Origin: an uncultured bacterium
GTDB taxonomy: Bacteria > Muiribacteriota > Ozemobacteria > Ozemobacterales > Ozemobacteraceae
Direction: 5' to 3'
Length of the DNA stretch: 64,000 nucleotides
Assembly (NCBI GenBank): GCA_964389325.1
Contig: CAYMEN010000005.1
Coordinates: 31,672-95,671, forward strand
The position numbers and the translations under genes are program-made. Position 1 is the first letter of the stretch, and each line of letters begins with the position of its first letter. The notes below the pieces were generated by a model. The model saw only the letters and a program-made list of their open reading frames with translations, did no database searches and was not told the DNA's origin. Below, piece by piece: positions 274-31,415 of the stretch.

Positions 274-1461
274 TCAGGGTTTCGCATCAGGTGGCGGCGT
301 ATCGCGCACGCACCGGAATCCGACGGTGGTGCTGCGATAGAAGGGCGTCCGATGGACGTCGCGGGCGCTGACCCGGCATCCCTTCGACTCGTCGTCCCAC
401 GAGCCGCCGCGGATGATCGGCTGGCCGAAATGGCCGTTGAAGTCGCGGCCGTCGCGGGCGTCGGGTTCGTAGACGGTCGCCGTCCATTCGGCGACGTTGC
501 CGGCCATGTCGAGCGCGCCCCACGGCGATGCACCGTCCGGGAAGCTCCCGACTTTCACGGGATACCCGCCCGTATTCAGGTTTTCGACGCGGAAGCTGCT
601 GCCCCACGGGTATTCACGACCGTCGCCGCCGCCCGCCGCGATCTCCCACTCGTCCTCGGTCGGAAGCCGCTTGCCAGCCCATTTTGCATACGCCCAGGCA
701 TCGTACCAGTCGACGAGAACGACCGGGCAGTCCTCCATTCCGGCTGGGGGACGGCCTCCAAGCCAGCTGAAACGCAGCGCCCAGGTATACGTATGGTAGG
801 GGACATGATCTTTCTGGATGGGTTCGGAGGGATGGCACCACTTATGGCCTTCGCGTTTCACGGCATTGAGGAACTTCTGGTATTCGGCGCAGGTCACCTC
901 GTGTTTGTCGATCCAGAAGCCCGGGCTCTTGATCTTCCGCAGAGGCCGTTCGTCGGGGTTGCCGCGCTCGTTGCCAAGCATGTAGACACCGCCCTTGATC
1001 TCGATCATTTCGCCTCTGGCATGGCTGTTCGCGGCTGAAGCCGTCGAAGCTGCGGCCGGCGGCGCGGCGACGGGCGCGAGTTCCAGCGACAGTTTCTGCT
1101 CCTGGCCTGATGCGACGCTGAAGCTGATTTTCTGGGAGGCGAAGCCGGGGGCCGCCGCCTCGAGACGGTGCTCTCCGGCGGGAATCTCGAACCGGAGTTC
1201 CGGCCCCGTGCCGCGCGGAAGGCCGTCGATCAGCATCGTCGTTTCCGGCGGCGTCACGCGCACGACGAGAGTTCCCCGCTCTCCGTCGGCTCTCTGTTCG
1301 AGCTTTCCTCCGTCGAAGGGGCAGAAGTTCACCCCGTCGTCGAACGACTTCCCGCAGGTCGGGCACTCCCTGTTCGCCAGGGCCGGCCGGCACAAAAGAG
1401 CCGCAGCCAGAACGAACAGGATGGTGAATCCACGGCGAATCCGCATGTAAGCCCGGGGCAT
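274..1461 (-). CDS. Formylglycine-generating enzyme (FGE/SUMF1/EgtB) family protein with N-terminal zinc-ribbon, signal/TM segment and PEGA-like domain
   Basis: ORF 274..1491 translation has FGE-sulfatase fold hallmarks (GSWDD..RVSARDVHRTPFYRSTTVGFRCV, WEIAAGGG.REYPWG) and CPTCG..CPFDG ribbon. Start chosen at MPRAYMRIRRGF (1461), preceded by GGAGGA RBS on minus strand. Confidence 0.75.
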   Translation of the reverse strand: MPRAYMRIRRGFTILFVLAAALLCRPALANRECPTCGKSFDDGVNFCPFDGGKLEQRADGERGTLVVRVTPPETTMLIDGLPRGTGPELRFEIPAGEHRLEAAAPGFASQKISFSVASGQEQKLSLELAPVAAPPAAASTASAANSHARGEMIEIKGGVYMLGNERGNPDERPLRKIKSPGFWIDKHEVTCAEYQKFLNAVKREGHKWCHPSEPIQKDHVPYHTYTWALRFSWLGGRPPAGMEDCPVVLVDWYDAWAYAKWAGKRLPTEDEWEIAAGGGDGREYPWGSSFRVENLNTGGYPVKVGSFPDGASPWGALDMAGNVAEWTATVYEPDARDGRDFNGHFGQPIIRGGSWDDESKGCRVSARDVHRTPFYRSTTVGFRCVRDTPPPDAKP

Positions 1462-1530
1462 GATTGTTTCCTCCGCCAGACAAGGTATCACGTCATCTTA
1501 ATACATGGTCACCCGCGCCGCAAACCGTTT

Positions 1531-3735
1531 TCAGGCCTTTCCCGAACGCGCGGCAAGCAGTTGCGCGGCACACTGACACAGTTTCTGCAGTTCGGCAGCC
1601 CCTTTTCCCGCAGGCTGCGCAAGAATTTTCGAAACGAGCAGCACCAGGTCGCGATAGGCGACACCGCCGTTCCCCTCGTATGCCATTCCATACGCTATAA
1701 CAAACTGACAGACCAGATCGATCTGCCCGTGTTCGGCTGCCTTTCTTGCTGCGGCAACCGCCTTCGTCGAATCCCCGACGAAAAACGCCGCCCGCGCCAG
1801 CCGCTGGAGGGCGGCGGGGTTGTCCGGAACGAGTTCCGCCAGACGAAGCAGGGCCTTGTAGGCGTCCTGAGGCCGCTGGAGGGCCTCGAGGGCCTCGGCC
1901 AGGAGCAGATAGGCCTGCGGGAGCTTCGGATACAGCCGGATCGTCGTATGGAGCGCCTCGGCCGCCTGTTTCCATTCACCATTGGCGTGGTGGATCTGAC
2001 CGAGGGCATACCGAGCCTTCGGCAGGTTGGGTTCCAGGGCCAGGGCCGACCGGAAACAGTCGGCGGCGCGGCGATGATCGCCTCCCCGGTGCACCAGGTC
2101 ACCCAGCGCCATCCATCCCTGCACATGCCGGGGAACGAGCTTCAGCAGCTGTTCGAGAGCGGCAACCGCCTCGCCGTTGCGACCGGAGCGAATGTGATCG
2201 GCAGCAACGCTCCAAAGCTTCTGGGCATCGGCTTCGACGGCCGACGACCGGCTTTTCTCGAGCTTTGTCCGGTGATTGGCGAGAGCGGATTTCAGCTCGC
2301 CCTCGAACCTGGCAAGAAGCTCGCCGCCCGCACGCGAAACTTCGGCGCAGACTTCCCCGAAGCACAACAGAAACACCTTGCGGACATCCTGGCTCTCATG
2401 ACGGAGTCCCGCGCACACCTCGTCGAGAACGTCGGCAGCCCCGAGTTTCCACAGGATTTCGACGGTTTTCCTCCTGACGCGGACCTCGGGATGTTTCATG
2501 CCCCTCCGGACCGAACCGAGAACCGCGGAGGTCACCGCCGCCTGGTCGATACCGGCGATGACGTTGAGAACGGCGATGGCGACCTGCGCTTCGGCGTTGT
2601 CGAGATAGGGCTCGATGATCGTGAGCGTTTCGGGCTTTCCGCACCGGCCGACCGTTTCGATGATCTGCGCGAGAACCCCGGCCGCCTTTTCCGTGAGGAG
2701 TCGCTTGACGAGAGGCATGAAGCAGTCGCTGCCCATCGTCGCCTCCAGCGCGGTGACGGCCTGGAGCCTGACCGCCGGTTCCTGGTCATCCAGGAGGGGG
2801 AGCACGCTCTCCTTCAGGGTCGCGAGGGCCGGAGCCTGTGCTCCCGCCGTCATTTTCCGGATCGCGATGACGGCGTTTCTCCTGATATCCGCGTCTCCGT
2901 CCCTGAGCGCCGTCAGAACATGCCTCTGGAAACCGCCGAGCCTGATTTCCCCGATCGCATAGAGGGCCGAGACGCGTTGCCGCTTGTCCTTGTCGGCGAG
3001 CATTTCCTTGATCGTGGCGGAAACCTCGAAATCACCGTACTGCCAGATGGCCTTGATGGCATTCGCGCGCACGCGCTGATGCGGATCGTAGAGATATGGT
3101 TGGAGAACGGCAATGTTGGAAGGATTCTTCAGCGCCTGGAGGGCCTCGACGGCATTCGCCCGGACGCGGGGGTCGTCATCCTTGAGAAAGCCGACGACCA
3201 CCGTCTGCATCGTATCGTTCATCCGCGGGATGAGCGCCGCGAGAACCGTCGCACGGATGCGCGGGTTCGTCTCCTTCATGAGAAGCTTGCGCATCAATGC
3301 CATGCAGATGGGTGTGCCAAGCCTGCCGAGCGCCCTGACGGCGCCGGAAATGGCCTCTTCGCTCAGCAGAACGGCTTCAGTGCCCCCTCCCGACCCCGCA
3401 AGATACTGCTCGACCGCATCACTGAGCACCTGGACCGCTTCGTCGGCATTGAGCCGCGACAGGGCGTCGGCCGCGGCGAGCCTGGTCTCGACCTGGGTAT
3501 CGTGAAGCGCCTGCAGCAACAGTTTTGCCGACTTGTCGGCGCTCATTCTGCTGAGCGCACAGGTCAGGTAGTCGTCGAGGTTGTCGCTCTTGAACCGCTC
3601 GAACAGTATTTCGGCGGCGGCTTCCCCTCGCAACCTGCTTACCGCCGTGAGGGCCGCCTTGCGCAACTCGTATTCGGTGCTGGTGAGATTGTCGAGAAGC
3701 AGATGAAAGATGTTGGAAAGGGCGGGAAAATTCAT
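1531..3735 (-). CDS. HEAT-repeat / TPR-repeat protein (734 aa)
   Basis: Repeated HEAT/PBS-lyase-like motifs (PRVRANAVEALQAL, VRLQAVTALEA) and C-terminal TPR-like repeats. The opposite-strand 882-aa ORF is Arg-rich low-complexity and judged spurious. Confidence 0.7.
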   Translation of the reverse strand: MNFPALSNIFHLLLDNLTSTEYELRKAALTAVSRLRGEAAAEILFERFKSDNLDDYLTCALSRMSADKSAKLLLQALHDTQVETRLAAADALSRLNADEAVQVLSDAVEQYLAGSGGGTEAVLLSEEAISGAVRALGRLGTPICMALMRKLLMKETNPRIRATVLAALIPRMNDTMQTVVVGFLKDDDPRVRANAVEALQALKNPSNIAVLQPYLYDPHQRVRANAIKAIWQYGDFEVSATIKEMLADKDKRQRVSALYAIGEIRLGGFQRHVLTALRDGDADIRRNAVIAIRKMTAGAQAPALATLKESVLPLLDDQEPAVRLQAVTALEATMGSDCFMPLVKRLLTEKAAGVLAQIIETVGRCGKPETLTIIEPYLDNAEAQVAIAVLNVIAGIDQAAVTSAVLGSVRRGMKHPEVRVRRKTVEILWKLGAADVLDEVCAGLRHESQDVRKVFLLCFGEVCAEVSRAGGELLARFEGELKSALANHRTKLEKSRSSAVEADAQKLWSVAADHIRSGRNGEAVAALEQLLKLVPRHVQGWMALGDLVHRGGDHRRAADCFRSALALEPNLPKARYALGQIHHANGEWKQAAEALHTTIRLYPKLPQAYLLLAEALEALQRPQDAYKALLRLAELVPDNPAALQRLARAAFFVGDSTKAVAAARKAAEHGQIDLVCQFVIAYGMAYEGNGGVAYRDLVLLVSKILAQPAGKGAAELQKLCQCAAQLLAARSGKA

Positions 3736-3812
3736 TTCAGGTTCACTTCGAAAACAGGTATCATGGATCCTGCAACACTATACCACCGAAACATCTGCGA
3801 AGAGGATGAATT

Positions 3813-5006
3813 TTGAGAGCGAAGACACACCACGTCTTTGCCGGAGTGACGTTTCTCCTGCTGGCTCTCGTCTGGCTCCACGGCGCCCGCATGACAAGCC
3901 TGCCGTCCCTCCGTCCCTCCCCTGCAGGCGATCTTCCGGCGGCATGGGAATCGGCCGCCAGGGCGCTCGGCCCGACCGGCCTCACGTTTCACCCCGCTTC
4001 TCACGGCCCATGCCGTCTGGAAGGCGTCGACGCCTCGGGCATCGTTCGATGGCACGCCGTTTTCAGCGCGTTTCTCTCCCCCCGCCCGGCCGGCTATGCG
4101 GGCCCCGTCGATCTCGTGGCCGGCTTCGACGATGCAGGCCGCATCACCGGCGTGCGGCTCCTTTCACACAACGAAACGCCGACGTTCGTCGCCGGGATCG
4201 ATTCCGATTGGTTTCTCGGGCAGTTCACGGGCAAGACGGCCGATGCCCCCCTCGTTCCAGGCGAGGACATCGAAGGCTTGACACACGCCACCGTCTCGGT
4301 CGAAGCTTTATGCCAGGCTCTTCGCCAGGGCTTTGCCGCCGCGAATCTCTCCTCCGCCCATCCCCGGCCGGAGGCCCCCGCGCCCGATGCACCTCGCAGG
4401 AAAGGCGTGCAGGCCAATCTGATCGCCGTCATCGTCTCCGTCATTGCGGCACTTGTTCAGCGCTTCATCGGAACCGGCCTTGCGGCGGCGATCGTCGTCT
4501 TCTCCCTAGGCTATCTTTCCCCGGCATACGTCTCCCTGTCGCATCTTCGCTTCCTTTCCGGCGGCTCGGTGTCCGTCCAGGCGGGCCTGATTCTCGGTCT
4601 CGCGGCGGCGGCCGTCGTTCTCTCGAGGCGCGGCTACTGCCGGCTTTTCTGTCCCTGTGGCCGCCTCCAGGACGTGATTCACTCGATTTCACCCACGGCG
4701 CCTTCAGGCTCATGCCGGCCCGGAGCAGGTCGGGCGCTTCTCTGGACGATTCTCCTGCTGTTTCCGCTGGTCGGAGAACTCCCCCTGGAGCGGGCGGAAG
4801 TCTTTTCGGCGCTCTTTTTCCGGAATCTCGGAACATGGGGAACGATTTTCGCCCTCTCGGTGCTCGCAGGCGCGGTCCTGGTTCCCCGTTTTTATTGTCG
4901 GAAGCTTTGCCCTCTGAACCCGCTGTTCGCCGACATCGAGACGCTCAAAACAGCTCTGGCCGTTTTTCGGCCGGGGGCGAAACCCGGACCGGGCGGCGCA
5001 TCATGA
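3813..5006 (+). CDS. Membrane-anchored FMN-binding-domain protein with two CxxxCP cysteine clusters (NapH/NosR/MauN-like)
   Basis: TTG start with AAGAGGA RBS. N-terminal TM anchor, FMN_bind-like segment (..AGFDDAGRITGVRLLSHNETP..IEGLTHATVSVEAL), several TM helices, and motifs CRLFCPCG and CRKLCPLNP typical of NapH-type ferredoxin-like membrane proteins. Confidence 0.65.
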   Translation: MRAKTHHVFAGVTFLLLALVWLHGARMTSLPSLRPSPAGDLPAAWESAARALGPTGLTFHPASHGPCRLEGVDASGIVRWHAVFSAFLSPRPAGYAGPVDLVAGFDDAGRITGVRLLSHNETPTFVAGIDSDWFLGQFTGKTADAPLVPGEDIEGLTHATVSVEALCQALRQGFAAANLSSAHPRPEAPAPDAPRRKGVQANLIAVIVSVIAALVQRFIGTGLAAAIVVFSLGYLSPAYVSLSHLRFLSGGSVSVQAGLILGLAAAAVVLSRRGYCRLFCPCGRLQDVIHSISPTAPSGSCRPGAGRALLWTILLLFPLVGELPLERAEVFSALFFRNLGTWGTIFALSVLAGAVLVPRFYCRKLCPLNPLFADIETLKTALAVFRPGAKPGPGGAS

Positions 5007-6217
5007 ACAGGCGGCGGTTTCTCATCGATGCCTGCACCGTGGCGGCAGGGATCAGCCTCGGCGGGCTGCTCCTCGACGGTCGGTCCAAAAGGGGCCCGAC
5101 CCCCGTCTCCCCGGAGCGGGATCATCCGGAAGGAGTTGCCGGCCGCCATGCCTATGACCGTGCGGCCGCCGAGGCGAAGCTGCGCAGTCTCGAGGCGGCG
5201 GGGCTCTCCCCGCGAGATGCGATGTACTGGTCACGCACCCCAGACGGACTGATCCGGTGCGAACTCTGTCCCCGTTTCTGCACGCTGAAACCGTTCGAGC
5301 GGGGTCTCTGCAAGGTGCGTATCAGCCTGGAAAACCGCCTCGGCACCCTCGTATACGGTCGCCCCTGCACGGCGGCGATCGATCCGATCGAAAAAAAGCC
5401 GGTCTTTCATTTTCTGCCCGGCAGCACAGCCTTCTCGATCGCGACGGCCGGCTGCCTCTTCGGCTGCCGCTACTGCCAGAACTGGCAGATCTCGCAAATC
5501 GGGCCCGAAGAGTGCGATTTTTACGATCTTCCTCCCGGGCGGGTCGTCGCGGATGCGGTGTCGAACGGCTGCAGAAGCATCGCCTACACGTACACCGAGC
5601 CAACGATCTTCTACGAGTACATGCTCGATACCTCGAAAGCCGCCCGCGCGGCCGGCCTGGCGAACATCATGATCTCCTGCGGCTACATCAACCCCGAGCC
5701 GCTCAGGGAGCTTCTTCCCTGGCTCGACGTCATGAAAGTCGACCTCAAGGGGTTCACGGAACGCTTCTACCGCTCCGTCTGCGGGGGAAATCTCGCTCCG
5801 GTTCTCTCGACGATCGAGCAGCTTTCCCAAAGCAAGGCCCTCGTCGACATCGTCACGCTCGTCGTTCCGACGCTGAACGACGACCCCGCAATCTGCTCGG
5901 ACATGTTCCGGTGGCTCATGGAGCACGTTGGCCCCGACATCAGCCTGTTCCTCTCCCGCTTCATGCCGACCTACCGCATGCGCGGCCTCCCGCCGACACC
6001 TCTCGACACGCTCGAGCGCCTCCGGGACCTGGCGATGAACACCGGTCTCCGATACGTGTATCTCGGAAACATCCCGGGCCATGAGGGGGAAAGCACCTTC
6101 TGCCCGGGCTGTAAAAAGCGTGTCGTCGAACGCTTCGGGTATTCGGTCGGGGAAATGCATATCAGCAAGGGAGCCTGCGCCTACTGCGGAACCGCCATTC
6201 CCGGCCGCTGGGAGTGA
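5003..6217 (+). CDS. Radical SAM enzyme, AmmeMemoRadiSam-system type (PflA-like), with N-terminal twin-arginine (Tat)-like signal
   Basis: ATG at 5003 overlaps the upstream stop (ATGA). N-terminus MNRRRFLIDACTVAAGISLGG is Tat-like. CxxxCxxC motif (CLFGCRYCQNW). N-terminal CELCPRFC..GLCKVR and C-terminal CPGCKK..GACAYCG clusters are typical of AmmeMemoRadiSam radical SAM enzymes. Confidence 0.8.
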   Translation: MNRRRFLIDACTVAAGISLGGLLLDGRSKRGPTPVSPERDHPEGVAGRHAYDRAAAEAKLRSLEAAGLSPRDAMYWSRTPDGLIRCELCPRFCTLKPFERGLCKVRISLENRLGTLVYGRPCTAAIDPIEKKPVFHFLPGSTAFSIATAGCLFGCRYCQNWQISQIGPEECDFYDLPPGRVVADAVSNGCRSIAYTYTEPTIFYEYMLDTSKAARAAGLANIMISCGYINPEPLRELLPWLDVMKVDLKGFTERFYRSVCGGNLAPVLSTIEQLSQSKALVDIVTLVVPTLNDDPAICSDMFRWLMEHVGPDISLFLSRFMPTYRMRGLPPTPLDTLERLRDLAMNTGLRYVYLGNIPGHEGESTFCPGCKKRVVERFGYSVGEMHISKGACAYCGTAIPGRWE

Positions 6218-6336
6218 GCGCAGCTTTTGCGCGACAACAAGGTTCTTTACCTTCCGGCCGCAATGCATTATATTCATTGCAGGGCTGCACGGGGAGCAAG
6301 GCCGCTCCATACCGCAGCACGAACCGGAGGCACGAC

Positions 6337-6981
6337 ATGACACAGAAGCAGCACGGCGAAGGCCAGGGCGAAACCATTCTCCGCAAGTATCCGAACCGCC
6401 GCATCTATGATGCGACGCGAAACACGCATGTCACGCTCGGCGAGATCGCCGATCGCATCAAGGCCGGCGAACGGATCCGGATCCTCGACCACAAGACGGG
6501 CGAGGACCTCACCCAGGTCACCATGGGGCAAGTTCTCGTGGAAACGCTGAAAACCCGCCCCGACTACCTTCCGCTCGACCTCGTCACGCTGATGATCCGC
6601 GCGCAGGACAACGTCGTCCGCGACTTCCTGTACAACGGTCTTCCCCAGGCCTTCCAGGGATATCTCGACCAGCAGCGGCGCCTGATGTCCGGCATGATGA
6701 TGAACCCCTGGCTTCCCGGAAGCTTCCCGACCATGTCGCCGTTCGGAAGCTTTTTCGGCGCCTCTCCTCAGCCCCAGCAGCCGCCACAGCCCCAGCAGCC
6801 CTATCCCGGCCCGACGGCGGCCCAGCCGGCCCAGCCCCCCACTCCGCCCCATGCGGCTCCCTCCCAGCCCGTCCCGCAGGCGGACGATTCGCTTCGCGAG
6901 GAACTCCAGAGGCTCCGCCGGGAGGTTGAAGCCCTGAAACACGCTGAGAAACCGGGGAAAGGCCGCCACCGCAAGAGCTAG
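6337..6981 (+). CDS. phaR: Polyhydroxyalkanoate synthesis repressor PhaR
   Basis: N-terminal PHB-accumulation-regulator DNA-binding domain (ILRKYPNRRIYDATRNTHVTLGEIADRIKAGERIRILDHKTGEDLT) and Pro/Gln-rich C-terminal tail. The ATG at 6337 is the first Met of the conserved domain. Confidence 0.85.
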   Translation: MTQKQHGEGQGETILRKYPNRRIYDATRNTHVTLGEIADRIKAGERIRILDHKTGEDLTQVTMGQVLVETLKTRPDYLPLDLVTLMIRAQDNVVRDFLYNGLPQAFQGYLDQQRRLMSGMMMNPWLPGSFPTMSPFGSFFGASPQPQQPPQPQQPYPGPTAAQPAQPPTPPHAAPSQPVPQADDSLREELQRLRREVEALKHAEKPGKGRHRKS

Positions 6982-7002
6982 ACTCCACCCGTTCATTCTG
7001 AA

Positions 7003-7035
7003 ACAGCCCGGGAGCTCCCGGGCTGTTCGCTTTCC
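7003..7035 (+). terminator. Rho-independent terminator-like hairpin after phaR
   Basis: ACAGCCCGGGAGCTCCCGGGCTGT stem-loop followed by a T-containing tract. Confidence 0.45.
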
Positions 7036-7158
7036 CTCGTGGCCCTGCAGCGCACGTTTCGGAGCCCATCGTTTCACGCGCTCCGTCTCGCTCACGCTCC
7101 CCGCCAATCCATCTTCCCAGGCAGATCCTGGCATCTCCAGCCCGCTCGGCACGATGAA

Positions 7159-7173
7159 TTTTGCATTGCAAAA
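7159..7173. promoter_or_regulatory. Putative PhaR operator: inverted repeat TTTTGCA-T-TGCAAAA (TGC-N3-GCA core) abutting -35
   Basis: Perfect 7-bp inverted repeat read directly. TGCN3GCA matches the reported PhaR box type. Lies 10 bp upstream of TTGACA. Confidence 0.55.
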
Positions 7174-7182
7174 TAATTTTGC

Positions 7183-7211
7183 TTGACACAATATCGTGCC
7201 GATGATATATT
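7183..7211 (+). promoter_or_regulatory. Sigma70-like promoter of phasin gene (TTGACA-17-TATATT)
   Basis: Consensus -35/-10 with 17-nt spacer, ~65 nt upstream of ATG 7279. Confidence 0.55.
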
Positions 7212-7278
7212 CGTTCATGTGAGACCAGTAAATCAAAAATTGCGAAATCGCATCGCACAATCCCAGGAGAACGAACCC

Positions 7279-7563
7279 ATGAACGCCTTCCACGGAACCA
7301 TGACCCCGTTCGCGGATCTCGCCGACGTATCCATGCACCTGTTCGATGCCTCGATGCGCCTGGCCGCCCAGTTTTCGCACAACGTCGAGAAGATCGCCTC
7401 GATGCAGGTCGAGACCGTGAACGAAGTTCATCGTCGCCAGACCGAGATCTCCAATCTGGTCATCGACGAGTCGCTGAAAGCGGCCCGGATTCTCCGGAAC
7501 CACTGTGAATCGCTCTTCAACCGGGCCATCGACCGCCAGGCCCAGACCGGGACCGACCGATGA
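7279..7563 (+). CDS. Phasin-family PHA granule-associated protein (paralog 1)
   Basis: Small alpha-helical protein, paralogous to the next two ORFs. AGGAGA RBS. Promoter plus PhaR-type box immediately upstream. Confidence 0.6.
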   Translation: MNAFHGTMTPFADLADVSMHLFDASMRLAAQFSHNVEKIASMQVETVNEVHRRQTEISNLVIDESLKAARILRNHCESLFNRAIDRQAQTGTDR

Positions 7564-7599
7564 CCACCCACAGACACAAGACACGAAAGGATCCGACCA

Positions 7600-7872
7600 A
7601 TGACAAACCAGTTGTTCGACCGCGACGAACTGCTCCGGCTCTCGAGGCAGGGGATGGAAAACTCCCTGAGATTCTACATGACGCTGACCGAGAACGCCCT
7701 GAAGCTCGGCGAGGTCCAGAAGGACACGATGAACGAAGCTTCCCGCCGGCAGATCGACCTCGTCAACAAGTCCTTCGAGGAGTATCAGAAGAGCACCCGC
7801 ACAATCACGGCCGGCTTCGAGAGAGAGTTGCGGAAACTGGCGGACCAGATCCAGCCCCAGGCCGCCCGGTAA
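7600..7872 (+). CDS. Phasin-family protein (paralog 2)
   Basis: Shares LFDRDELLRLSRQGMENSLRFYMTLTEN with paralog 3. Tandem arrangement. Confidence 0.6.
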   Translation: MTNQLFDRDELLRLSRQGMENSLRFYMTLTENALKLGEVQKDTMNEASRRQIDLVNKSFEEYQKSTRTITAGFERELRKLADQIQPQAAR

Positions 7873-7943
7873 CGTTCGGTTTCACACAGACGGCGATTCG
7901 AAACGCCTTCTCGATTTTGAATACAATATCAAGGAGAATACCA

Positions 7944-8234
7944 ATGACCCCGACAACCAACAACCCCCTGTTCGACCGCGACGAGATGATCCGCCTTTCC
8001 CGCGAAGGTCTCGAGAACTCCCTCAAGTTCTACACGACCCTCACCGAGAACGTCACCAAGATCGCCGACATGCAGCGCGAAGCCTACAACGAGACCGCCA
8101 AGAAGCAGATCGAGATGGTCAACAAGGCGTATGAGGATTACCAGAAGAACACCCGCGTCGTCATGCACCACTTCGAGAACGTCTGGCGCCAGGTGATCGA
8201 GCAGGCCGCCCCCAAGGCCAAGGCCGCCGAATAA
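7944..8234 (+). CDS. Phasin-family protein (paralog 3)
   Basis: LFDRDEMIRLSREGLENSLKFYTTLTEN. AAGGAGA RBS at 7931. Terminator hairpin follows. Confidence 0.6.
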   Translation: MTPTTNNPLFDRDEMIRLSREGLENSLKFYTTLTENVTKIADMQREAYNETAKKQIEMVNKAYEDYQKNTRVVMHHFENVWRQVIEQAAPKAKAAE

Positions 8235-8254
8235 TCCCGCTCCTGCCCCTGACG

Positions 8255-8292
8255 GCCGCCGGTCTGCCCAGGCAGTTCCGGCGGCTTTTCAT
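8255..8292 (+). terminator. Terminator hairpin after third phasin gene
   Basis: GCCGCCGG..CCGGCGGC stem followed by TTTTC. Confidence 0.5.
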
Positions 8293-8323
8293 TCCCGAAG
8301 GCGCCCCGCTGCCCACCCTCGAT

Positions 8324-8353
8324 TTGACACCTCCAGAGGGGGGCCCCTATACT
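8324..8353 (+). promoter_or_regulatory. Sigma70-like promoter upstream of phaC (TTGACA-18-TATACT)
   Basis: Read directly, ~70 nt upstream of the phaC ATG. Confidence 0.45.
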
Positions 8354-8424
8354 TTCCCGGCCGGTGCCCGCCCCTCACGCACCGGATATCAGATCCGTAC
8401 ACCCCAGGGAGGAACGTCGATATC

Positions 8425-9537
8425 ATGAGCAACCAGCATGGAGCAGCTCCTGCCCAGGATCCCCGTCTCCAGGAAGATCTCGCGAGGGCGCGGAAATTCG
8501 TCGAGTATCTTCAGCATGCCGCCGCCGTCGGCAACCGGGCCAGCGATCAGCAACTCGCCTCCCTCGGCATGGCCCAGACGCCCTGCCGCACGGTCTACAC
8601 CGAAGGCACCTGTCGGCTGTTCGAATTCGAGGTCCTCGGCAAACCTCTCGACGCGCCGCCGATCTTCATGGTGTACTCCTTCATCAACCGATGGTACATC
8701 CTCGATCTCCAGCCTGGCCACAGCTTCATCGAAGCCCTGTCGAAGGCGGGATACAAGGTCTATCTCCTCGACTGGGGCATCCCCGGCCCGGAAAACGCCC
8801 AGCACGGCCTCGCCTACTATCTCGAGAAGGTCGCCCTCCGCGCCGTCCGCCGCGTCCGCCGCGCCGAGGGCGGAACGAAGCTCACCCTGTTCGGCTACTG
8901 CCTCGGCGGCACCTGCGCGGCGATGATGGCCGCCCTGCATCCCGACGAGTACGCGAACCTGGTCCTTCTCGCCACGCCTCTCGAGTTCACCGAGGGCGGC
9001 CTCCTCACGCTCTGGACCAACAAGGACTCGTTCGACCCGAAGAAACTCGCCGACGCGTTCGGCTGCGTGCCGGAAAAGATCCTGCACGCCCCGTTCCCCT
9101 ACCTGCAGGCCAGATCGACGTTCGCGAAGCCGCGCATCCTGTTCGAAAATATTCTTGATGATACATATTTACAGAATTTCAAGGTCCTCGACCGCTGGGC
9201 GACCGACAACGTGCCGTTCCCCGGCCAGACGTTCGTCGAGATCATCCGCGACTGCTACCAGGAAAACCTCCTCTCGCAGAACGCCATGCGCATCGACGGG
9301 AAAACCGTCGACCTGCGGACGATCACCTTCCCGACGCTGAACCTGTATGCGACGAACGACCACGTCGTCTCCGTCGAGTGCGCCGAGCGGAATCCCGACA
9401 TCCTTCCCAACTCGAAAGTGACGAACCGGAAGTACGAAGCCACCCATTTCACCCTGACCGTCGCCCACCCCATCCGGGAAACCGTCTGGAAAGACACGAT
9501 GGCGTGGCTGTCCCGCACCAAGCCTTCCAATATGTGA
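8425..9537 (+). CDS. phaC: Class III-type poly(R)-hydroxyalkanoate synthase catalytic subunit PhaC
   Basis: 370 aa. Lipase-box GYCLGG. ILDLQPGHSFIEALSKAGYKVYLLDWG segment typical of class III/IV PhaC. Size is consistent with a two-subunit synthase. Confidence 0.85.
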   Translation: MSNQHGAAPAQDPRLQEDLARARKFVEYLQHAAAVGNRASDQQLASLGMAQTPCRTVYTEGTCRLFEFEVLGKPLDAPPIFMVYSFINRWYILDLQPGHSFIEALSKAGYKVYLLDWGIPGPENAQHGLAYYLEKVALRAVRRVRRAEGGTKLTLFGYCLGGTCAAMMAALHPDEYANLVLLATPLEFTEGGLLTLWTNKDSFDPKKLADAFGCVPEKILHAPFPYLQARSTFAKPRILFENILDDTYLQNFKVLDRWATDNVPFPGQTFVEIIRDCYQENLLSQNAMRIDGKTVDLRTITFPTLNLYATNDHVVSVECAERNPDILPNSKVTNRKYEATHFTLTVAHPIRETVWKDTMAWLSRTKPSNM

Positions 9538-9553
9538 AGAGGAGACGAATCCC

Positions 9554-9916
9554 GTGACGAACCCGTTTGATTTCGGCCGCAACATGATGGAACTCTGGGA
9601 AAAATCCATGACCGAAACTTTCGAGCGCCTGACGAAGGATGAGCAGTTCCTCAAGTCCATGAGCCAGGTCATGTCCCAGTCCCTCGACGTGCGCAAGCAT
9701 CTCGGCGGCCAGATCGAGTCGTATCTGACTTCGATCAACATGCCTTCCAAATCCGAACTCGACCGAATGCTGTGCTATCTTCAGCGCGTCGAGGCCAAAC
9801 TCCTCGACCTCGAGGATCAGTTTGCCGAGATCCGCGACGAGATTTCTGCGCTCCGCCCGGGGCCGGCGGCGAAGCCGAAGCCGGCCAAACGGTCGCCTTC
9901 CACAAAAAAGGCCTGA
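9554..9916 (+). CDS. Short PhaE-like (PHA synthase class III partner / phasin-like) protein
   Basis: 17 nt downstream of phaC. C-terminal P-S-K-S-E-L-D..L..L..VEAKLLDLE motif resembles the PhaE/PhaF-type segment. At 120 aa it is much shorter than canonical PhaE. Confidence 0.5.
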   Translation: MTNPFDFGRNMMELWEKSMTETFERLTKDEQFLKSMSQVMSQSLDVRKHLGGQIESYLTSINMPSKSELDRMLCYLQRVEAKLLDLEDQFAEIRDEISALRPGPAAKPKPAKRSPSTKKA

Positions 9917-10020
9917 TCTTCTTCCGACCGAGCCGCCCGGGCGACTGCCCGGGCGGCGTATTTTTGCACCATGTTTTCTCTGCCCATCACATTTTCCAAC
10001 GCAAATCCCCGGGCAGGCAT

Positions 10021-10069
10021 TGTGCATTGCAAAATATTTCTTGACTTTTTATTGCATTGCGGGTATCCT
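10021..10069 (+). promoter_or_regulatory. Promoter (TTGACT-17-TATCCT) with two TGCATTGC(A/G) PhaR-type boxes flanking the -35
   Basis: GTGCATTGCAAAATATTTCTTGACTTTTTATTGCATTGCGGGTATCCT. Same box as at 7163. Confidence 0.55.
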
Positions 10070-10105
10070 CTGCTCATACCCCACACGGAATTCGACAAAG
10101 GAGCC

Positions 10106-10456
10106 ATGACGATGGAAGCACTGTTTCAAGAGTATCTCAAGGCCGGCCGCGACGTTCAGACGTTCTGGGAGAACCGGATCGCCCAGGCGATGGACGAGTT
10201 CGCGAAGTCGCAGACGTTCGTCAACACGATGACCCGCTCGCTCGAGCAGGGCCTCGACATGCGCAAGATGTGGGAAACGAACCTCAACCGCTGGGCCGAG
10301 ACCTTCCAGCTCGTCACCAAGCACGAGCTCGACGAGATCAGCCGCCGCCTCTACGACCAGAACGCTTACCTCGACAAGATCACGACCCAGCTCGCCGACA
10401 TCGCCGGCCAGGTTCGCACCCAGACCGAAGCCGTCACCGGTCGGAATACCAACTGA
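10106..10456 (+). CDS. Second short PhaE-like/phasin-like protein
   Basis: Start at MTMEAL (ATG 10106), preceded by AAAGGAG. Shares the HELDEISRRL..LDKITTQL motif type with the 9554 protein. Promoter with two TGCATTGC boxes upstream. Confidence 0.5.
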   Translation: MTMEALFQEYLKAGRDVQTFWENRIAQAMDEFAKSQTFVNTMTRSLEQGLDMRKMWETNLNRWAETFQLVTKHELDEISRRLYDQNAYLDKITTQLADIAGQVRTQTEAVTGRNTN

Positions 10457-10660
10457 AGCCGGTTTCAGGAACGAATCCGCAGATCGAGAGCCGATGGAAG
10501 CAGATGAAGGACAGATGAGATCCGCATCCTGGAAACATTTGATGTTCGATATAATCTGGCAACTCAAGGAAAAACGTGTTCCAGGATTTCATCTGTGTCA
10601 TCTGCGCCATCTGCGGATGGGTTCTCGCAACAGATCCTCAATCGCCAACAGGAGGCGACG

Positions 10661-11746
10661 ATGAACGACACCCTCACGAAAAGCGCGTCCAGGCTTCTTG
10701 AAGCGACGGCCGCCAACATCGACCTCGCCGGCCGCATCATCGAGAAGAACCTCGACTCGCTCCTCTCCGCCTCACCTGCATCGCACGACGAGCCATATCG
10801 CGGTGCAACAATGGTCGAGGAGATCTTCCGGTTCGACTCGATGAAGCTCCTGCGCTACCGCGGCACGGCCCCGATCACCTGCCCGACGCCGCTGGTGCTC
10901 GTCCCGTCTCTGATCAACCGCGCCTACATCATGGACCTGATGCCCTCCGCGACCCTGGCCGGCCATCTTCGCGAGGCGGGCATTCAGGTCTACCTGCTCG
11001 ACTGGGGCACCCCCGGCCCGCAGCACGACCACCTGCCGTTCCGGTTCTTCGTCGACGAGCTCATCGCCATGGCCGTGCGCGAGGCGTGTCGCGATACCGG
11101 CGCCCGGAAAGCGTCGCTGCTCGGCTACTGCATGGGCGGCACCATGCCGCTCCTCCACGCCGCTCTCCATCCTGACCGCATCGAGCGGCTCGTCATGCTC
11201 GCCGCCCCCGTCAACTTCCATGACGAAGGCACTCTCTCTGCCTGGGCGCGCAAGGAGGCCTTCGACGTCGACACGCTCGTCGATGTCCTCGGACATGCCG
11301 ACTGCGCGATGCTCCAGTCGTCCTTCCAGCTGATCAAGCCCTTCTCGGGGTATCAGAAGTGGAAGAACGTGTTCGAGGGCAGTCTCGACTCGAAGGCCGC
11401 CGAAAGCATCGTCGCCCTCGAGGCCTGGCTGAACGACAACGTCAACGTTCCCGGCGAGGCGTATCGCGGCTATGTGAAACTCTGTTACCACGACAACGCC
11501 ATCAGGAACCGGTGCTTCGATTTCGACGGGAGCCGGATCGACCTCGAAAAGCTTTCCATCCCGGTCATGAACGTCATGGCCTCGAAGGACCACATCGTTC
11601 CGATCGAGTCTTCCCGGTTTCTGTCCCAGCTTGTTTCGGGACCGGTCACGGATCTCGTGATCGATGCAGGGCACATCGGCGTCGTCATGGGCCGAAAGGC
11701 CCGCGGCATGTTCGAATCCGTCGCGAAGTTTCACACCAACGCCTGA
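10661..11746 (+). CDS. phaC: Second class III-type PHA synthase PhaC paralog
   Basis: Lipase-box GYCMGG. LINRAYIMDLMPSATLAGHLREAGIQVYLLDWG. GGAGG RBS at 10651. Terminator hairpin follows. Confidence 0.8.
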   Translation: MNDTLTKSASRLLEATAANIDLAGRIIEKNLDSLLSASPASHDEPYRGATMVEEIFRFDSMKLLRYRGTAPITCPTPLVLVPSLINRAYIMDLMPSATLAGHLREAGIQVYLLDWGTPGPQHDHLPFRFFVDELIAMAVREACRDTGARKASLLGYCMGGTMPLLHAALHPDRIERLVMLAAPVNFHDEGTLSAWARKEAFDVDTLVDVLGHADCAMLQSSFQLIKPFSGYQKWKNVFEGSLDSKAAESIVALEAWLNDNVNVPGEAYRGYVKLCYHDNAIRNRCFDFDGSRIDLEKLSIPVMNVMASKDHIVPIESSRFLSQLVSGPVTDLVIDAGHIGVVMGRKARGMFESVAKFHTNA

Positions 11747-11781
11747 GTTCACCAATTTCATCCCACGTTCCTATGTTCTTG

Positions 11782-11818
11782 GGACCGGCTCGCAAGAGCC
11801 GGTCCATTTTGTATTTGA
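11782..11818 (+). terminator. Terminator after phaC paralog
   Basis: GGACCGGCTCGCAAGAGCCGGTCC followed by ATTTTGTATTTG. Confidence 0.6.
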
Positions 11819-11994
11819 TATATAATACGCTATTGTTCTTTCCACGTCCGGACAGGCTCCTTTTCCGGACCCCGACAAAACGAAACTCACGCCGGTCACG
11901 ATCCGTTTCCATTTGCAAAAATTCCTCTATATCGAATATGATCCCTGTCGAAAAAATGAAACTCCCTTCTTTCCATCACCGTCTGGAGGAGCCC

Positions 11995-13341
11995 ATGAGC
12001 CAGGATCTGAAGCAGTGGTCTGTTTTCTTTCTCGTTCTCGTCATCGCCTCCCTGCCCGCCAAAGCCATTGGCGCGGGGTACATGGTGCGTGAGCACGGCA
12101 CGACCGGCATGTCCAGCGCTTTTGCCGGAGTGCACACCGGCGCGCACGATCTCGCCGACACGTATTTCAACCCGGCGGCCCTGGTGCTCCACGCGCCGGG
12201 GGAAGCGATCGTCTCGGTGCTGCAGCTCGATCCGGACGTGCGCTTTTCCCTGAGAGGCGCCACAACGGCCGTCGGCACGGCGGTCGGCGGGTATCCCGGA
12301 GGAGAGGATGGGGCTCCCACGGCCACGATCCCGGCCGTCTACGCCTCCCTTGCCGATTCAAAGGGATGGCGGTTCGGTCTTGCCATGAACGCCCCGTGGG
12401 GCCTCAGCACGAAGTATACGCCGACCTGGGTCGGCCGTTACTATGCGATCGATTCCGAAATGACCTCCCTGGCGGTCATGCCGGTTGCCGGCAGACGGCT
12501 CGATTCGAAGTGGATGTTCGCCGCCGGGCTGAACATCCAGTCCATCGATGCGAAGCTCACCAACGCCGTCGATTACGGAACGATCGCGGCGGGGAGCGGC
12601 ATCCCGGGTGCCGCGCCGGCCACGCAGGACGGCGTCGCGGAAATGACCGGCGATGCCCGGGACGTCGGCTTCGTTCTCGGCTTCATCTGCGACATTTCCC
12701 CCCGGGACCGGGCCGGCCTCTCGTATCGTTCGGCCGTCCGGCACACCCTGAAGGGCGACTGCCGCTTCGGATTCGACGCCGCCGGCATGGCGGGAGCGAT
12801 GAACGCGGCAACGGGGCTTTTCTCCCACACCGGCGCGCGTTCCGACCTCACGACGCCCGAAATTCTCGGCATCGGGTACAGCCGCACCTGCGGCGCCTCC
12901 TGGACCGTGATGCTCGACGCGGCGAAAACGTTCTGGCACCGCTACGGCGGCCTGCGGGTCACTTTCGACAACCCCGCGCAGCCAGATTCCTTCACGGCGG
13001 AAGACTGGAAAGACGTCTGGTATACCTCGCTCGGCGCGATCTACCGGCCGAGTTCGCGGCTCGCCTGGCGCGCCGGCGTGGCCCGCGACCGCTCCCCCAT
13101 CCCCGATTCGCGCCGCACGCCCCGCATCCCTGGTTCCGACAGCCTGCAGATCGCCCTCGGAGCTGAATACCGCACGTCCGACCGCATGGTGATCTCGGCA
13201 GGATTCATGCGGATCTGGTATGACGACGCCCCGATCGATCTCCGGGCGGCTGACCCCGGCAACCTCCTGCGGGGCAACCTCTCCGGCGACTTCACCACCG
13301 GCCTCGACATCTACGGCATCCAGGCTTCATATATTTGGTAA
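11995..13341 (+). CDS. Outer-membrane FadL/TodX (OMPP1) family long-chain fatty acid / hydrophobic compound transporter
   Basis: Signal peptide MSQDLKQWSVFFLVLVIASLPAKA. GYMVREHGTTGMSSAFAGVHTG..NPAAL start motif. C-terminal aromatic end ..SYIW. GGAGGA RBS. Confidence 0.75.
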   Translation: MSQDLKQWSVFFLVLVIASLPAKAIGAGYMVREHGTTGMSSAFAGVHTGAHDLADTYFNPAALVLHAPGEAIVSVLQLDPDVRFSLRGATTAVGTAVGGYPGGEDGAPTATIPAVYASLADSKGWRFGLAMNAPWGLSTKYTPTWVGRYYAIDSEMTSLAVMPVAGRRLDSKWMFAAGLNIQSIDAKLTNAVDYGTIAAGSGIPGAAPATQDGVAEMTGDARDVGFVLGFICDISPRDRAGLSYRSAVRHTLKGDCRFGFDAAGMAGAMNAATGLFSHTGARSDLTTPEILGIGYSRTCGASWTVMLDAAKTFWHRYGGLRVTFDNPAQPDSFTAEDWKDVWYTSLGAIYRPSSRLAWRAGVARDRSPIPDSRRTPRIPGSDSLQIALGAEYRTSDRMVISAGFMRIWYDDAPIDLRAADPGNLLRGNLSGDFTTGLDIYGIQASYIW

Positions 13342-13433: not shown

Positions 13434-14066
13434 TCATTCTGCAGGACAGCAGCTCAGAATATCCCGAACGGCCGGCTTTTTCGGGCATTCCGGCTTCGCC
13501 GCGGGCCAGCCGACGGGAATCACGGCGCCCAGCCGCCAGGGCTTTTCGATGCGCAGGAGCCGTTCGAGCGGATTTTCCGCCACCAGCGGACCGCTCATCC
13601 AGCAGCTTCCGAGGCCGAAGGCATGCAGGCCGAGCAGCAGGGCATGCACCGCTCCGCCGAACGCCTGGATCTCGGCGAGACCTTCGAGCGTCCGGTCATT
13701 CTCGCCGCTCGGCAGGCGGGACGCGAAGCTTCGATACGCCCCGAACAGGACGACGGGCGCGCGATCGAAAAACGTGAACCATTTCGAGTAGTCGCGAAAC
13801 GCCGCGGCCGAAGCCTCGTCGAGCCTGCCGGCGATCTCGTCGATGCGGCGCAGGACGTCCTGGCTCATCGACTGGAGCAGAAGCTGGTCGGAAACGGCAA
13901 TGAACCGAAAACACTGCCGGTTCGTCGGCGCAGGCGAGTACCGAACGGCTTCGATGACGCGTTCGATGATCGCCGGGTCGACGGGATCCGGACGGAACTG
14001 GCGCACGCTCCGCCGTTCCGACATCAGCCCGGCAAAGGCGTCGAATGTCGCGAAAGCGTCACTCAC
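13434..14066 (-). CDS. Nitroreductase-family protein
   Basis: ERRSVRQFRPDPVDPAIIERVIEAVRYSPAPTNRQCFRFIAV is the classic nitroreductase fold signature. Overlaps the upstream gene by 4 nt. Confidence 0.8.
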   Translation of the reverse strand: MSDAFATFDAFAGLMSERRSVRQFRPDPVDPAIIERVIEAVRYSPAPTNRQCFRFIAVSDQLLLQSMSQDVLRRIDEIAGRLDEASAAAFRDYSKWFTFFDRAPVVLFGAYRSFASRLPSGENDRTLEGLAEIQAFGGAVHALLLGLHAFGLGSCWMSGPLVAENPLERLLRIEKPWRLGAVIPVGWPAAKPECPKKPAVRDILSCCPAE

Positions 14067-18879: not shown

Positions 18880-19455
18880 TCAGTTTTCTTCGTAGACCGT
18901 CACGGGGAACCAGGCGCCCTGCATCAGGACAGGCAGGACGGGATCGGCACGCAGGGAGATCGTGACCTTCGATGTTTCGGCCGTGACGGCTTTGGATGTC
19001 TTCCCCATGCCGTAGAACGGGACGAACGGATTTCGCCCGACACGGAACGGGCTGGATTTGGCAGTGACGATTCTCAGTTTGTCGACAACGAGGGGAAAGC
19101 CTTCCCGGGCCAGCTTATCGATATCGGCCGACGTCAAGCGGACCGGAACCTTCTCGAAGCCCGCTTTGCCGGACGCTCTTTCGGTGCCGGCATAGGTCTG
19201 CATCTCGGTGACCATCTTGCGCATCTCGGTGTTCAGACGGCGTTCTTCCTCGAGTCTTTTCCGCAGGACCTCGGCTTCGCCGAAGTAGTTGCTCATCGCC
19301 ATCTCGCCCGTAACGGCGACGATGCCGCGCGGTTCGCTGCGCTGACCGATATAGTTGATCAGGATGATCCCCGCCACGAACAGGTATCCAACGCCGAGGA
19401 ACAACTGGGATCTCTGCTTTTCACCTGCCACAGCCGACATTCCTCCGGGATTCAA
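18880..19455 (-). CDS. Hypothetical membrane-anchored protein
   Basis: ORF with TM segment (LFLGVGYLFVAGIILINYIG). Overlaps the ispF 3' end. Followed by a strong terminator. Confidence 0.45.
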   Translation of the reverse strand: MNPGGMSAVAGEKQRSQLFLGVGYLFVAGIILINYIGQRSEPRGIVAVTGEMAMSNYFGEAEVLRKRLEEERRLNTEMRKMVTEMQTYAGTERASGKAGFEKVPVRLTSADIDKLAREGFPLVVDKLRIVTAKSSPFRVGRNPFVPFYGMGKTSKAVTAETSKVTISLRADPVLPVLMQGAWFPVTVYEEN

Positions 19456-19924: not shown

Positions 19925-19932
19925 CCCATCGT

Positions 19933-21129: not shown

Positions 21130-21144
21130 TCCGGGAACTTCCTC

Positions 21145-31334: not shown

Positions 31335-31415
31335 CCTCCTGAGAAAAAATCCTCTCCTCAATTCTACCACCATTTTCGGCCCTCATCGTTGTATAATCCC
31401 TTTGAGGACTCGATC

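Follow-up and report, generated by a model that had tools for sequence, protein, structure and literature searches.

The locus described here lies in a window of 64 kb from a contig of an Ozemobacteraceae (Riflebacteria) bacterium; all window coordinates refer to this stretch, and these 64 kb are what was seen of the genome. Two genes were found adjacent to each other on its forward strand. The first (3813..5006, +) starts with TTG, ends with TGA at 5004-5006 and encodes a membrane protein of 397 residues that joins an FMN_bind domain (FMN, flavin mononucleotide) to a NapH-like part with two CX3CP motifs. The second (5003..6217, +) starts with the ATG at 5003 and encodes 404 residues, a radical S-adenosylmethionine (SAM) enzyme of the AmmeMemoRadiSam type. 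According to the open reading frame (ORF) calls, the stop codon of the former and the start codon of the latter overlap in the tetranucleotide ATGA (5003..5006, +). Genes, coordinates and overlap are all as given in a preliminary description of this DNA, which proposed that the membrane protein is a dedicated electron-supply module for a possibly exported radical SAM enzyme. The comparative evidence presented below supports that proposal, short of proof.

The two-gene unit looks like a bicistronic, translationally coupled operon, since the gene upstream, encoding a HEAT/TPR protein (1531..3735, -), is divergent and ends 77 nt before the membrane-protein gene, and the gene downstream, encoding PhaR, is placed behind a promoter-like site (the promoter and terminator scan was otherwise uninformative). 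The 397-residue membrane protein begins at the same position in the database proteins P0121 and P0122, and start-overlaps of 4-26 nt are also present in the related loci L081, L083, L085, L088, L089 and L091. The best database matches are 100% and 89% identical and come from Candidatus Ozemobacteraceae/Riflebacteria metagenome-assembled genomes (MAGs).

The radical SAM enzyme and its membrane partner

The product of the second gene is assigned by score and motifs to the family TIGR04337 (AmmeMemoSam_rS), in agreement with the type proposed for it before. It scores 357 bits, above the curated NCBIfam cutoff of 220, over residues 74-404 (5222..6214, +; model positions 2-334 of 349), and is also matched by Pfam Radical_SAM. 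Three cysteine motifs are present, namely CELCPRFC (residues 86-93), CLFGCRYC (151-158), which contains the radical SAM CX3CX2C triad C151/C155/C158 (5453..5476, +), and CPGC...CAYCG (367-395). The cysteines of the triad, together with C86/C89/C93/C103 and C367/C370/C392/C395, are invariant across 37 aligned homologues, the window protein included. No structure has been solved for any member of this family. The nearest solved fold is the pyruvate formate-lyase (PFL) activating enzyme 3cb8 (TM-score 0.81, target-normalised; root-mean-square deviation 2.8 A), which is the nearest solved structure by sequence as well (E=4e-5). The AlphaFold model (mean pLDDT 88.7) has a confident globular domain from residue ~50 onwards, the first helix of which (residues 53-65, pLDDT ~95) is packed onto the core.

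AMMECR1 and Memo, the partners that define the gene context of the AmmeMemoRadiSam system, are not adjacent to the radical SAM gene, as had been remarked in the preliminary description, and tblastn with 37 neighbour proteins brought up no AMMECR1 in the window. A stand-alone Memo is, however, encoded 24 kb from the radical SAM gene (30486..31373, -; TIGR04336 AmmeMemoSam_B, 244 bits; Pfam Memo). It has no signal peptide, and its call partly overlaps that of a NamZ-like gene on the other strand (30492..32660).

The enzyme extends 73 residues beyond the TIGR04337 model and ~50 residues ahead of the folded domain, which replaces the earlier estimate of ~45 residues. Its N-terminus reads MNRRRFLIDACTVAAGISLGGLLLDGRSKRG, and the leader (residues 1-24; 5003..5074, +) can be written as MNRRRFL-IDACTVAAGISLGGLLL-DGRSKRG: a twin-arginine-type n-region with the motif N-R-R-R-F-L-I, of the S/T-R-R-x-F-L-K type, a Gly-rich and weakly hydrophobic h-region, DACTVAAGISLGGLLL, with a maximum hydropathy of 1.77, and the basic stretch DGRSKRG. 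AlphaFold models residues 3-24 as a helix. A Pro/Ser-rich linker (residues 25-48; 5075..5146, +), disordered in the model (pLDDT <50), leads from there to the globular domain.

The twin arginines are invariant in 20/20 Riflebacteria orthologues (54-89% identical). Column conservation in these orthologues is 0.77 for residues 1-8 and again 0.77 for the catalytic core, against 0.25 for the linker, which varies in length too. The extension is missing from archaeal homologues (L073, L076) and from bacterial homologues of 324 residues, which begin at the CxLCP motif. Conservation of the leader at the protein level, next to a variable linker, shows that the extension is translated and kept by selection as an element of the targeting type. 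Met74, considered as a downstream start, was rejected for the same reason, the N-terminal 25 residues being conserved as protein in the 20 orthologues, and the start codon of the preliminary description stands. Cys11, near the start of the h-region (RRxFLxxxC-T; codon 5033..5035), is kept in 19/20 of them and does not occupy a lipobox position.

From the Tat (twin-arginine translocation) signal claimed earlier, the RR motif, the h-region and their conservation stand, whereas a Pfam TAT_signal match is lacking (see below) and the AAAEA segment (residues 53-57) has to be given up. The latter was rejected as a cleavage site: it is placed ~30 residues past the h-region, inside the confidently folded first helix of the AlphaFold model, and is therefore not a c-region or signal-peptidase site.

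The upstream protein is matched by Pfam FMN_bind (43.3 bits, cutoff 22) and Fer4_5 (25.2 bits, cutoff 22). Hydropathy and AlphaFold secondary structure place six transmembrane (TM) helices at residues 5-27, 197-214, 221-235, 255-270, 305-319 and 341-356, with the FMN domain between TM1 and TM2. The N-terminal anchor (residues 5-27; 3825..3893, +) has its hydropathy peak at residues 8-24 and is modelled as a helix over its whole length; a hydrophobic N-terminal stretch was found in all aligned relatives, and this anchor is predicted to put the FMN domain outside the cytoplasm. The Pfam match of the FMN-binding domain covers residues 94-172 (4092..4328, +). Alignment of relatives points to T160 (codon 4290..4292, +), in EGLTHATVS, as the putative flavinylation threonine; A159-T160 is invariant across 17 relatives, as are the GYAGP glycines. 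This part of the protein is confidently modelled (pLDDT 85-89), and its fold, including the anchor, is RnfG/NqrC-like (Foldseek: RnfG 9eri_G/7zc6_G, NqrC). RnfG and NqrC are periplasm-facing, covalently flavinylated subunits.

The membrane protein contains exactly two CX3CP motifs, starting at residues 276 and 362. The first (C276-R-L-F-C280-P281; 4638..4655, +) is located just after TM4 and preceded by SRRGY, the second (C362-R-K-L-C366-P367; 4896..4913, +) just after TM6 and preceded by PRFY. In relatives C276, C280 and P281 are invariant or nearly so, and C362, C366 and P367 are invariant. A cytoplasmic position of both motifs is consistent with the predicted topology, because arginines precede each of them and they directly follow TM4 and TM6. 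The extracytoplasmic FMN domain and two cytoplasmic clusters of the preliminary description thus agree with the Pfam matches and the six-helix prediction. Its comparison with NapH and NosR holds for the domain plan and fails for family membership: the NCBIfam scores are 17.7 vs 213 for napH (TIGR02163), 22.3 vs 1000 for NosR (NF046105) and 46.3 vs 102 for RnfG (TIGR01947). With scores so far under the cut-offs, the protein is judged not to be a NapH, NosR or RnfG family member, and the resemblance is at the domain level only.

Conservation of the pair and leaders in the wider family

An FMN_bind+Fer4_5 gene directly upstream of the radical SAM gene, and overlapping its start, was found in every Riflebacteria contig examined, that is in the window, L081/82, L083/84, L085/86, L088, L089 and L090. 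The other neighbours differ among these seven contigs and include RND efflux and nitroreductase genes, SpoIIE/GDSL and Sulfatase-domain genes, HEAT/TPR genes and a lipoate-protein ligase-like gene. Shared contig sizes imply this pairing for four more homologue pairs, and the two genes are still found together where identity falls to 54% for the enzyme and ~30-40% for the membrane partner. Both conditions that the preliminary description had set for its own refutation, one on the N-terminal extension and its start codon and one on conservation of the neighbouring gene, were thus decided in favour of its proposal. In a reciprocal metagenome scan with the membrane-protein profile, 3/3 close relatives had a radical SAM gene in the locus; the remaining 77 matches were distant NapH-like proteins, matched in the C-terminal part only and without a radical SAM gene. 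Among 80 genome loci searched by tblastn, the membrane protein was upstream of the radical SAM gene in only three (L010, L011, L013), so that only a minority of the leader-bearing homologues have the FMN/NapH partner.

Outside Riflebacteria the FMN_bind/NapH module recurs beside the radical SAM enzyme in three other architectures, so that the co-occurrence proposed as a check in the preliminary description is found within the phylum and beyond it. In the first, DsbD_2+FMN_bind+Fer4_5 fusions are placed directly upstream of radical SAM enzymes with hydrophobic non-RR leaders (L010 8015..9760, L011 1744..3435, L013 5585..7252; UBP3, Auribacterota and Chlamydiae MAGs). The second, seen in Pirellulales (L038, L062), is a fusion of ~1300 residues in which a spermidine-synthase-like membrane protein is joined to RnfG-like and NapH-like parts. 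The third is the metagenomic locus L091, where a NifS-like cysteine desulfurase, a permease, an FMN_bind/NapH protein ending in a 2x[4Fe-4S] domain, the leader-bearing radical SAM enzyme (again with an ATGA overlap) and a DsbD_2/CcdA-like gene (7661..8365) follow one another; the permease is Cys-rich. DsbD_2 modules co-occur specifically with Sec-like non-RR radical SAM leaders (L010, L011, L013, L091), which is suggestive of the upkeep of a reduced cysteine-rich or iron-sulfur (Fe-S) protein outside the cytoplasm.

The 120 closest database homologues comprise 50 with RR leaders, 16 with KR leaders, 26 with hydrophobic non-RR (Sec-like) leaders, 22 with none and six others, likely with truncated N-termini. 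For 79 loci of species-representative genomes the corresponding counts are 50 (RR/KR-type), 13 (hydrophobic non-RR) and 16 (none). Leader classes form largely coherent sequence neighbourhoods. Among the 120 homologues the h-region hydropathy is 1.7 in the RR class vs 2.97 in the non-RR class, matching the known distinction whereby Tat signals have less hydrophobic h-regions than Sec signals. In 41/44 RR leaders and 21/24 non-RR leaders the N-terminal flank carries more positive charge than the C-terminal one, which predicts an N-in/C-out topology. Many RR leaders of other phyla end in AQA/ASA or lipobox-like sites. A second, leaderless AmmeMemoRadiSam-type paralogue (335-338 residues, ~42% identical) occurs near the leader-bearing copy in L021 (8601..9617) and L033 (3898..4905).

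The commonest neighbours in the 79 genome loci are a ~710-residue polytopic spermidine-synthase-domain protein (~42 loci), Memo-AMMECR1 fusions (34) and a DUF362 gene directly upstream (10). Nearly all of the ~500-residue Memo-AMMECR1 fusions beside radical SAM genes begin with Sec or lipoprotein-type signals, such as ...LLVCCIGSS and ...VFLCSCSNS (judged in L004, L017, L027, L033, L034, L036, L038, L055-L057, L060-L068, L077 and L079), and several of the upstream DUF362 proteins begin with RRxFL. From these signals, the AmmeMemoRadiSam system as a whole appears to be directed to the envelope in many phyla. Proteins of such kinds are encoded elsewhere in the window. A DUF362 protein with a bona fide Tat leader (MNRRQFVKW...) and a neighbour gene with weak prenyltransferase/squalene-hopene-cyclase-repeat similarity overlap by 4 bp (45255..46220 and 46217..47083, both -). 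A 742-residue polytopic protein (49429..51657, -), 44 kb from the operon, matches the NCBIfam 'fused MFS/spermidine synthase' model NF037959 (52.6 bits, cutoff 40) and is distantly related to the ~710-residue membrane neighbours.

The remaining surroundings of the operon were considered as well. A polyhydroxyalkanoate (PHA) cluster is located directly 3' of it (6334..11746, +), with PhaR (PHB_acc_N), small phasin-like ORFs, two class III PhaC-like synthases (8425..9537 and 10595..11746) and a PhaE-like gene (9554..9916). A functional tie was rejected, since the PHA genes are absent from the orthologous loci L081, L083, L085, L088 and L089. The divergent HEAT/TPR protein (734 residues) recurs upstream in L085/86 and L088, and beyond it the window encodes an FGE-sulfatase/PEGA/zinc-ribbon protein (274..1491, -); in the relatives the FGE-sulfatase/HEAT-TPR region covers 1642..5402 (L085) and 1472..3709 (L088). 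In L083 a Sulfatase-domain gene (883 residues) begins 4 bp past the radical SAM stop codon. A role in sulfatase maturation, which the FGE-sulfatase upstream in the window and L085 and the Sulfatase gene of L083 might bring to mind, is not favoured: the enzyme does not belong to the anSME/SPASM type, and the genes are not constantly associated. Isoprenoid-precursor genes, for IspF (YgbB), IspD and a polyprenyl synthetase, are grouped at 19421..24016 (-).

Proposed mechanism and competing explanations

All radical SAM enzymes depend on SAM, on oxygen-sensitive Fe-S clusters and on a one-electron donor of low potential. FMN proteins are the canonical donors, and flavodoxin is the physiological reductant of the PFL activating enzyme. 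The domain content, the topology plan, the conservation of motifs and leader, the coupling of the genes and their recurrent co-occurrence across lineages are established by the present analysis. The window further contains, behind the PHA cluster, a gene for a FadL/TodX-type outer-membrane protein (within 11359..13341), which indicates that the host cell is diderm and has a periplasm.

With modest confidence we favour a reading in which the enzyme is Tat-targeted, is tethered to the outer face of the membrane and has its cluster reduced by the FMN of its partner, acting as a flavodoxin surrogate. The radical SAM enzyme would fold and gain its Fe-S clusters in the cytoplasm, and the twin-arginine-type leader would take the folded protein over the membrane via the Tat pathway. 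The leader, uncleaved, would probably be kept as an N-terminal anchor, and the flexible linker of ~25 residues would tether the catalytic domain to the outer membrane face. The two cytoplasmic-side CX3CP motifs of the partner would bind an Fe-S centre accepting electrons either from a cytoplasmic protein, possibly a nitroreductase-family flavoprotein, or from quinol aided by the membrane potential. Electrons would then move on to FMN covalently bound to the RnfG/NqrC-like outer domain, and this FMN, as an extracytoplasmic stand-in for flavodoxin, would reduce the [4Fe-4S]2+ cluster of the enzyme so that SAM can be cleaved. Export itself, the direction of electron flow and the flavinylation of the partner are what we infer in this scheme from sequence. 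An envelope or membrane-lipid substrate is suggested, because in other phyla the same enzyme is found with exported Memo-AMMECR1 lipoproteins and a membrane spermidine-synthase-like protein.

As to the cytoplasmic donor, nitroreductase-family genes are present in the window (13443..14048, -), in L081 (6156..6785) and in L085 (13662..14294). The L081 protein is 56% identical to its window homologue, and its gene overlaps the start of the FMN/NapH-like gene, forming a three-gene operon. In the window and L085 the gene is 4.5-7 kb downstream, in a syntenic block of nitroreductase, a 100-residue ORF, a ~322-residue ORF and an SNF2 helicase. This gives a weak hint of a nitroreductase-family donor, the proximity in the window and L085 being shared synteny.

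Several observations weigh against this mechanism. We know of no evidence that SAM is available outside the cytoplasm, and a SAM exporter was not identified; without help, quinol is much too oxidising for the reduction of a radical SAM cluster; and the partner has no cytoplasmic ferredoxin domain. Its flavinylation motif reads T-H-A-T (residues 157-160) and not the usual S/T-G-A-T, while relatives mostly have DG[IV]SGAT and those outside Riflebacteria read SGAT or TGAT. The membrane part of its AlphaFold model is of low confidence (pLDDT 50-65). The preliminary description had proposed that a flavin transferase, ApbE, be looked for nearby; tblastn with E. coli Ftp, a search of limited sensitivity, gave no significant match in the window (best E=0.09), the Riflebacteria loci or the 80 genome loci.

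The leader itself raises difficulties of the same kind. Pfam TAT_signal (PF10518) did not match it even at E<=10, either in the full protein or as the isolated leader, the NCBIfam Tat profiles did not match the protein, and the leaders of homologues scored 9.4-21.3 bits, under the cutoff of 22.7 that the window DUF362 leader, used as a positive control, exceeded with 26.7 bits. The support for the Tat assignment accordingly comes from the motif, the character of the h-region and conservation. The window genes that were scanned include no Tat genes. In the window protein and its Riflebacteria orthologues the h-region is not followed by an AxA or lipobox site, and the leader, read as a Tat-type signal, is therefore probably retained as a membrane anchor; uncleaved Tat anchors exist, so that a missing cleavage site does not rule out Tat targeting. 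In the wider family, 26/120 homologues have Sec-type leaders, which could not carry a folded Fe-S enzyme; therefore either Fe-S insertion takes place outside, a process that to our knowledge is not described in bacteria, or these leaders have another role. Moreover the radical SAM enzyme is leaderless in L004, L036, L038 and L062 although Memo-AMMECR1 has a signal there, and with L038 and L062 among them the FMN/NapH link is not strictly tied to an exported radical SAM enzyme.

The main rival leaves the catalytic domain inside the cytoplasm and gives the N-terminal helix no role other than to anchor or dock the enzyme at the partner's cytoplasmic CX3CP Fe-S site. Electrons would then enter from outside via the FMN domain, or from quinol, and reduce the cluster inside, where SAM is. 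We consider this unlikely. It removes the problems of SAM supply and Fe-S assembly, and it accommodates the failure of Pfam TAT_signal to recognise the leader, the lack of a cleavage site, the coexistence of leaderless radical SAM enzymes with FMN/NapH fusions in L038 and L062, and the Sec-like leaders of the 26 homologues, which are hard to square with export of an Fe-S enzyme. However, the flank charges predict N-in/C-out in the great majority of RR and non-RR leaders, and the invariant RR-x-F-L with a weakly hydrophobic, Asp-containing h-region is typical of a signal and not of a reverse (N-out) anchor. The AQA/ASA and lipobox-like ends of many relatives' leaders are those of cleavable export signals, and the Memo-AMMECR1 and DUF362 partners carry export signals themselves. 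In addition, the co-occurring DsbD_2 thiol-reductant modules make sense for cysteine-rich proteins outside the cell.

It is rather improbable, in our judgement, that the two proteins do work together but the FMN/NapH-like one handles a different redox step of their common envelope pathway, such as the redox chemistry of a substrate, a product or a Memo-like metalloprotein, or the removal of turnover electrons, with the radical SAM electron coming from elsewhere. In Pirellulales the FMN/NapH part is fused to the spermidine-synthase-like protein and placed after an exported Memo-AMMECR1, and the radical SAM enzyme there is leaderless, as this explanation would have it. Furthermore ~45/50 loci with a Tat-leader radical SAM enzyme have no nearby FMN/NapH gene, 10 having DUF362 instead, and NapH-like systems serve both reductases and oxidases (PMC8238504). 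Nevertheless the radical SAM gene is the only constant partner in Riflebacteria and is translationally coupled, and no Memo, AMMECR1 or SpdSyn-like gene is adjacent there. The need of radical SAM enzymes for a low-potential one-electron donor, a part for which FMN proteins are the obvious candidates, also speaks for the direct connection.

That adjacency and RR motif are meaningless, an inherited synteny and a chance motif in an ordinary cytoplasmic AmmeMemoRadiSam enzyme, is strongly disfavoured: all stand-alone examples do come from one candidate phylum, and the HEAT/TPR and FGE-sulfatase neighbours are shared by the window, L085 and L088, so that some synteny is simply inherited, but the pair persists where all other neighbours differ (L081, L083, L089), differently fused forms of the module are found in unrelated phyla, and the leader is conserved where the adjoining linker is not.

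Returning to the reading of a Tat-exported, FMN-fed enzyme, we tentatively raise the possibility that the window is one case of a widespread and undescribed class of extracytoplasmic radical SAM systems, working in the periplasm or on the outer membrane face. Such systems might combine a radical SAM enzyme targeted by Tat or Sec, a Memo-AMMECR1 fusion made as a lipoprotein and a spermidine-synthase-like protein of the membrane, and might be powered by dedicated transmembrane conduits (FMN/NapH-like proteins, their DsbD_2-fused versions or Tat-exported DUF362 proteins). SAM would then have to be delivered to, or retained in, the extracytoplasmic space, and in the versions with Sec leaders Fe-S clusters would have to be inserted outside the cytoplasm.

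Radical SAM enzymes form one of the largest superfamilies and, as far as we know, are treated as strictly cytoplasmic, so that extracytoplasmic chemistry would be unprecedented. The relatives in many phyla suggest, by their leaders, that members of this enzyme family often work outside the cytoplasm. With a member that is Tat-targeted and has a flavin-based electron feeder of its own across the membrane, radical chemistry would reach into the cell envelope, one branch of the 'NapH-like' flavinylated conduits, many of which are orphans, would gain a first client and function, and testable questions would arise on the supply of SAM and Fe-S clusters outside the cytoplasm. Such an enzyme would also open a fresh approach to the triad of Memo, AMMECR1 and radical SAM enzyme, which has long gone unexplained and has disease-linked members in eukaryotes; the triad seems envelope-directed in many bacteria, which points to a membrane or envelope substrate.

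Comparison with known systems

A close parallel to the membrane protein is PceC/RdhC, judged at the level of domains (Pfam FMN_bind and Fer4_5). The topology of PceC was determined experimentally (Buttet et al. 2018, PMC5928378), and the plan is the same: an N-terminal TM anchor and an exoplasmic FMN domain, which holds the flavinylation threonine, are joined to five more TM helices, with two CX3CP motifs on the cytoplasmic side. A C-terminal ferredoxin domain is lacking in both proteins. For PceC/RdhC the proposed client, an Fe-S (and corrinoid) enzyme exported by Tat, is placed on the outer face of the membrane, as proposed here, although the client in the present case would be a radical SAM enzyme; no rdhA, rdhB or reductive dehalogenase gene was found in the operon or in the scanned window, and SGAT is replaced by THAT in the window protein.

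NapH-like proteins with an N-terminal FMN domain have been described as inside-to-outside electron conduits whose clients are mostly unknown, a module reused with different oxidoreductases (Meheust et al. 2021, PMC8238504). The window protein, which is polytopic with PF12801 (Fer4_5), several TM helices and an N-terminal extracytosolic FMN_bind domain, fits the definition of this flavinylated class except for ApbE. The main text of the survey does not mention a radical SAM client, and the part of its supplement considered shows only unrelated radical SAM genes. NapH and NosR themselves resemble the window protein as polytopic CX3CP Fe-S membrane proteins that link the membrane or cytoplasmic electron pool to a periplasmic enzyme, and NosR has a periplasmic flavinylated FMN domain as well. 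The window protein differs in having no C-terminal 2x[4Fe-4S] ferredoxin domain, and no nap or nos genes are found near its operon.

As for the enzyme, it shares with AmmeMemoRadiSam proteins and archaeal AmrS a full-length TIGR04337 match and all the family cysteines, and Memo-AMMECR1 is adjacent in many related loci. It differs by its 73 residues of leader and linker, and by being paired with an FMN/NapH-like gene instead of AMMECR1 and Memo. Work by Burroughs and colleagues (2019) is said to have linked the AmmeMemoRadiSam system by context to nucleotide-base or isoprenoid modification. The PFL activating enzyme offers the closest solved fold, and its use of an FMN protein as one-electron donor follows the logic proposed here; that enzyme is, however, cytoplasmic, soluble and without the extra Cys motifs, and its donor is a soluble flavodoxin and not a membrane-anchored covalent flavoprotein. 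The Rieske protein provides a precedent for the proposed localisation, being an Fe-S protein with an uncleaved twin-arginine leader as N-terminal anchor and a cofactor domain on the outer face. Its fold and function are unrelated, and Tat dependence and non-cleavage are only predicted for the window protein.

Literature searches returned nothing on exported, periplasmic, secreted or Tat-dependent radical SAM enzymes, although the study of Burroughs et al. from 2019 may note signal peptides. In the HXS paper (PMC13128918), cytoplasmic radical SAM enzymes mature an effector that is exported. Should the localisation proposed for the enzyme of the window be confirmed, the location of its radical SAM chemistry would be new.

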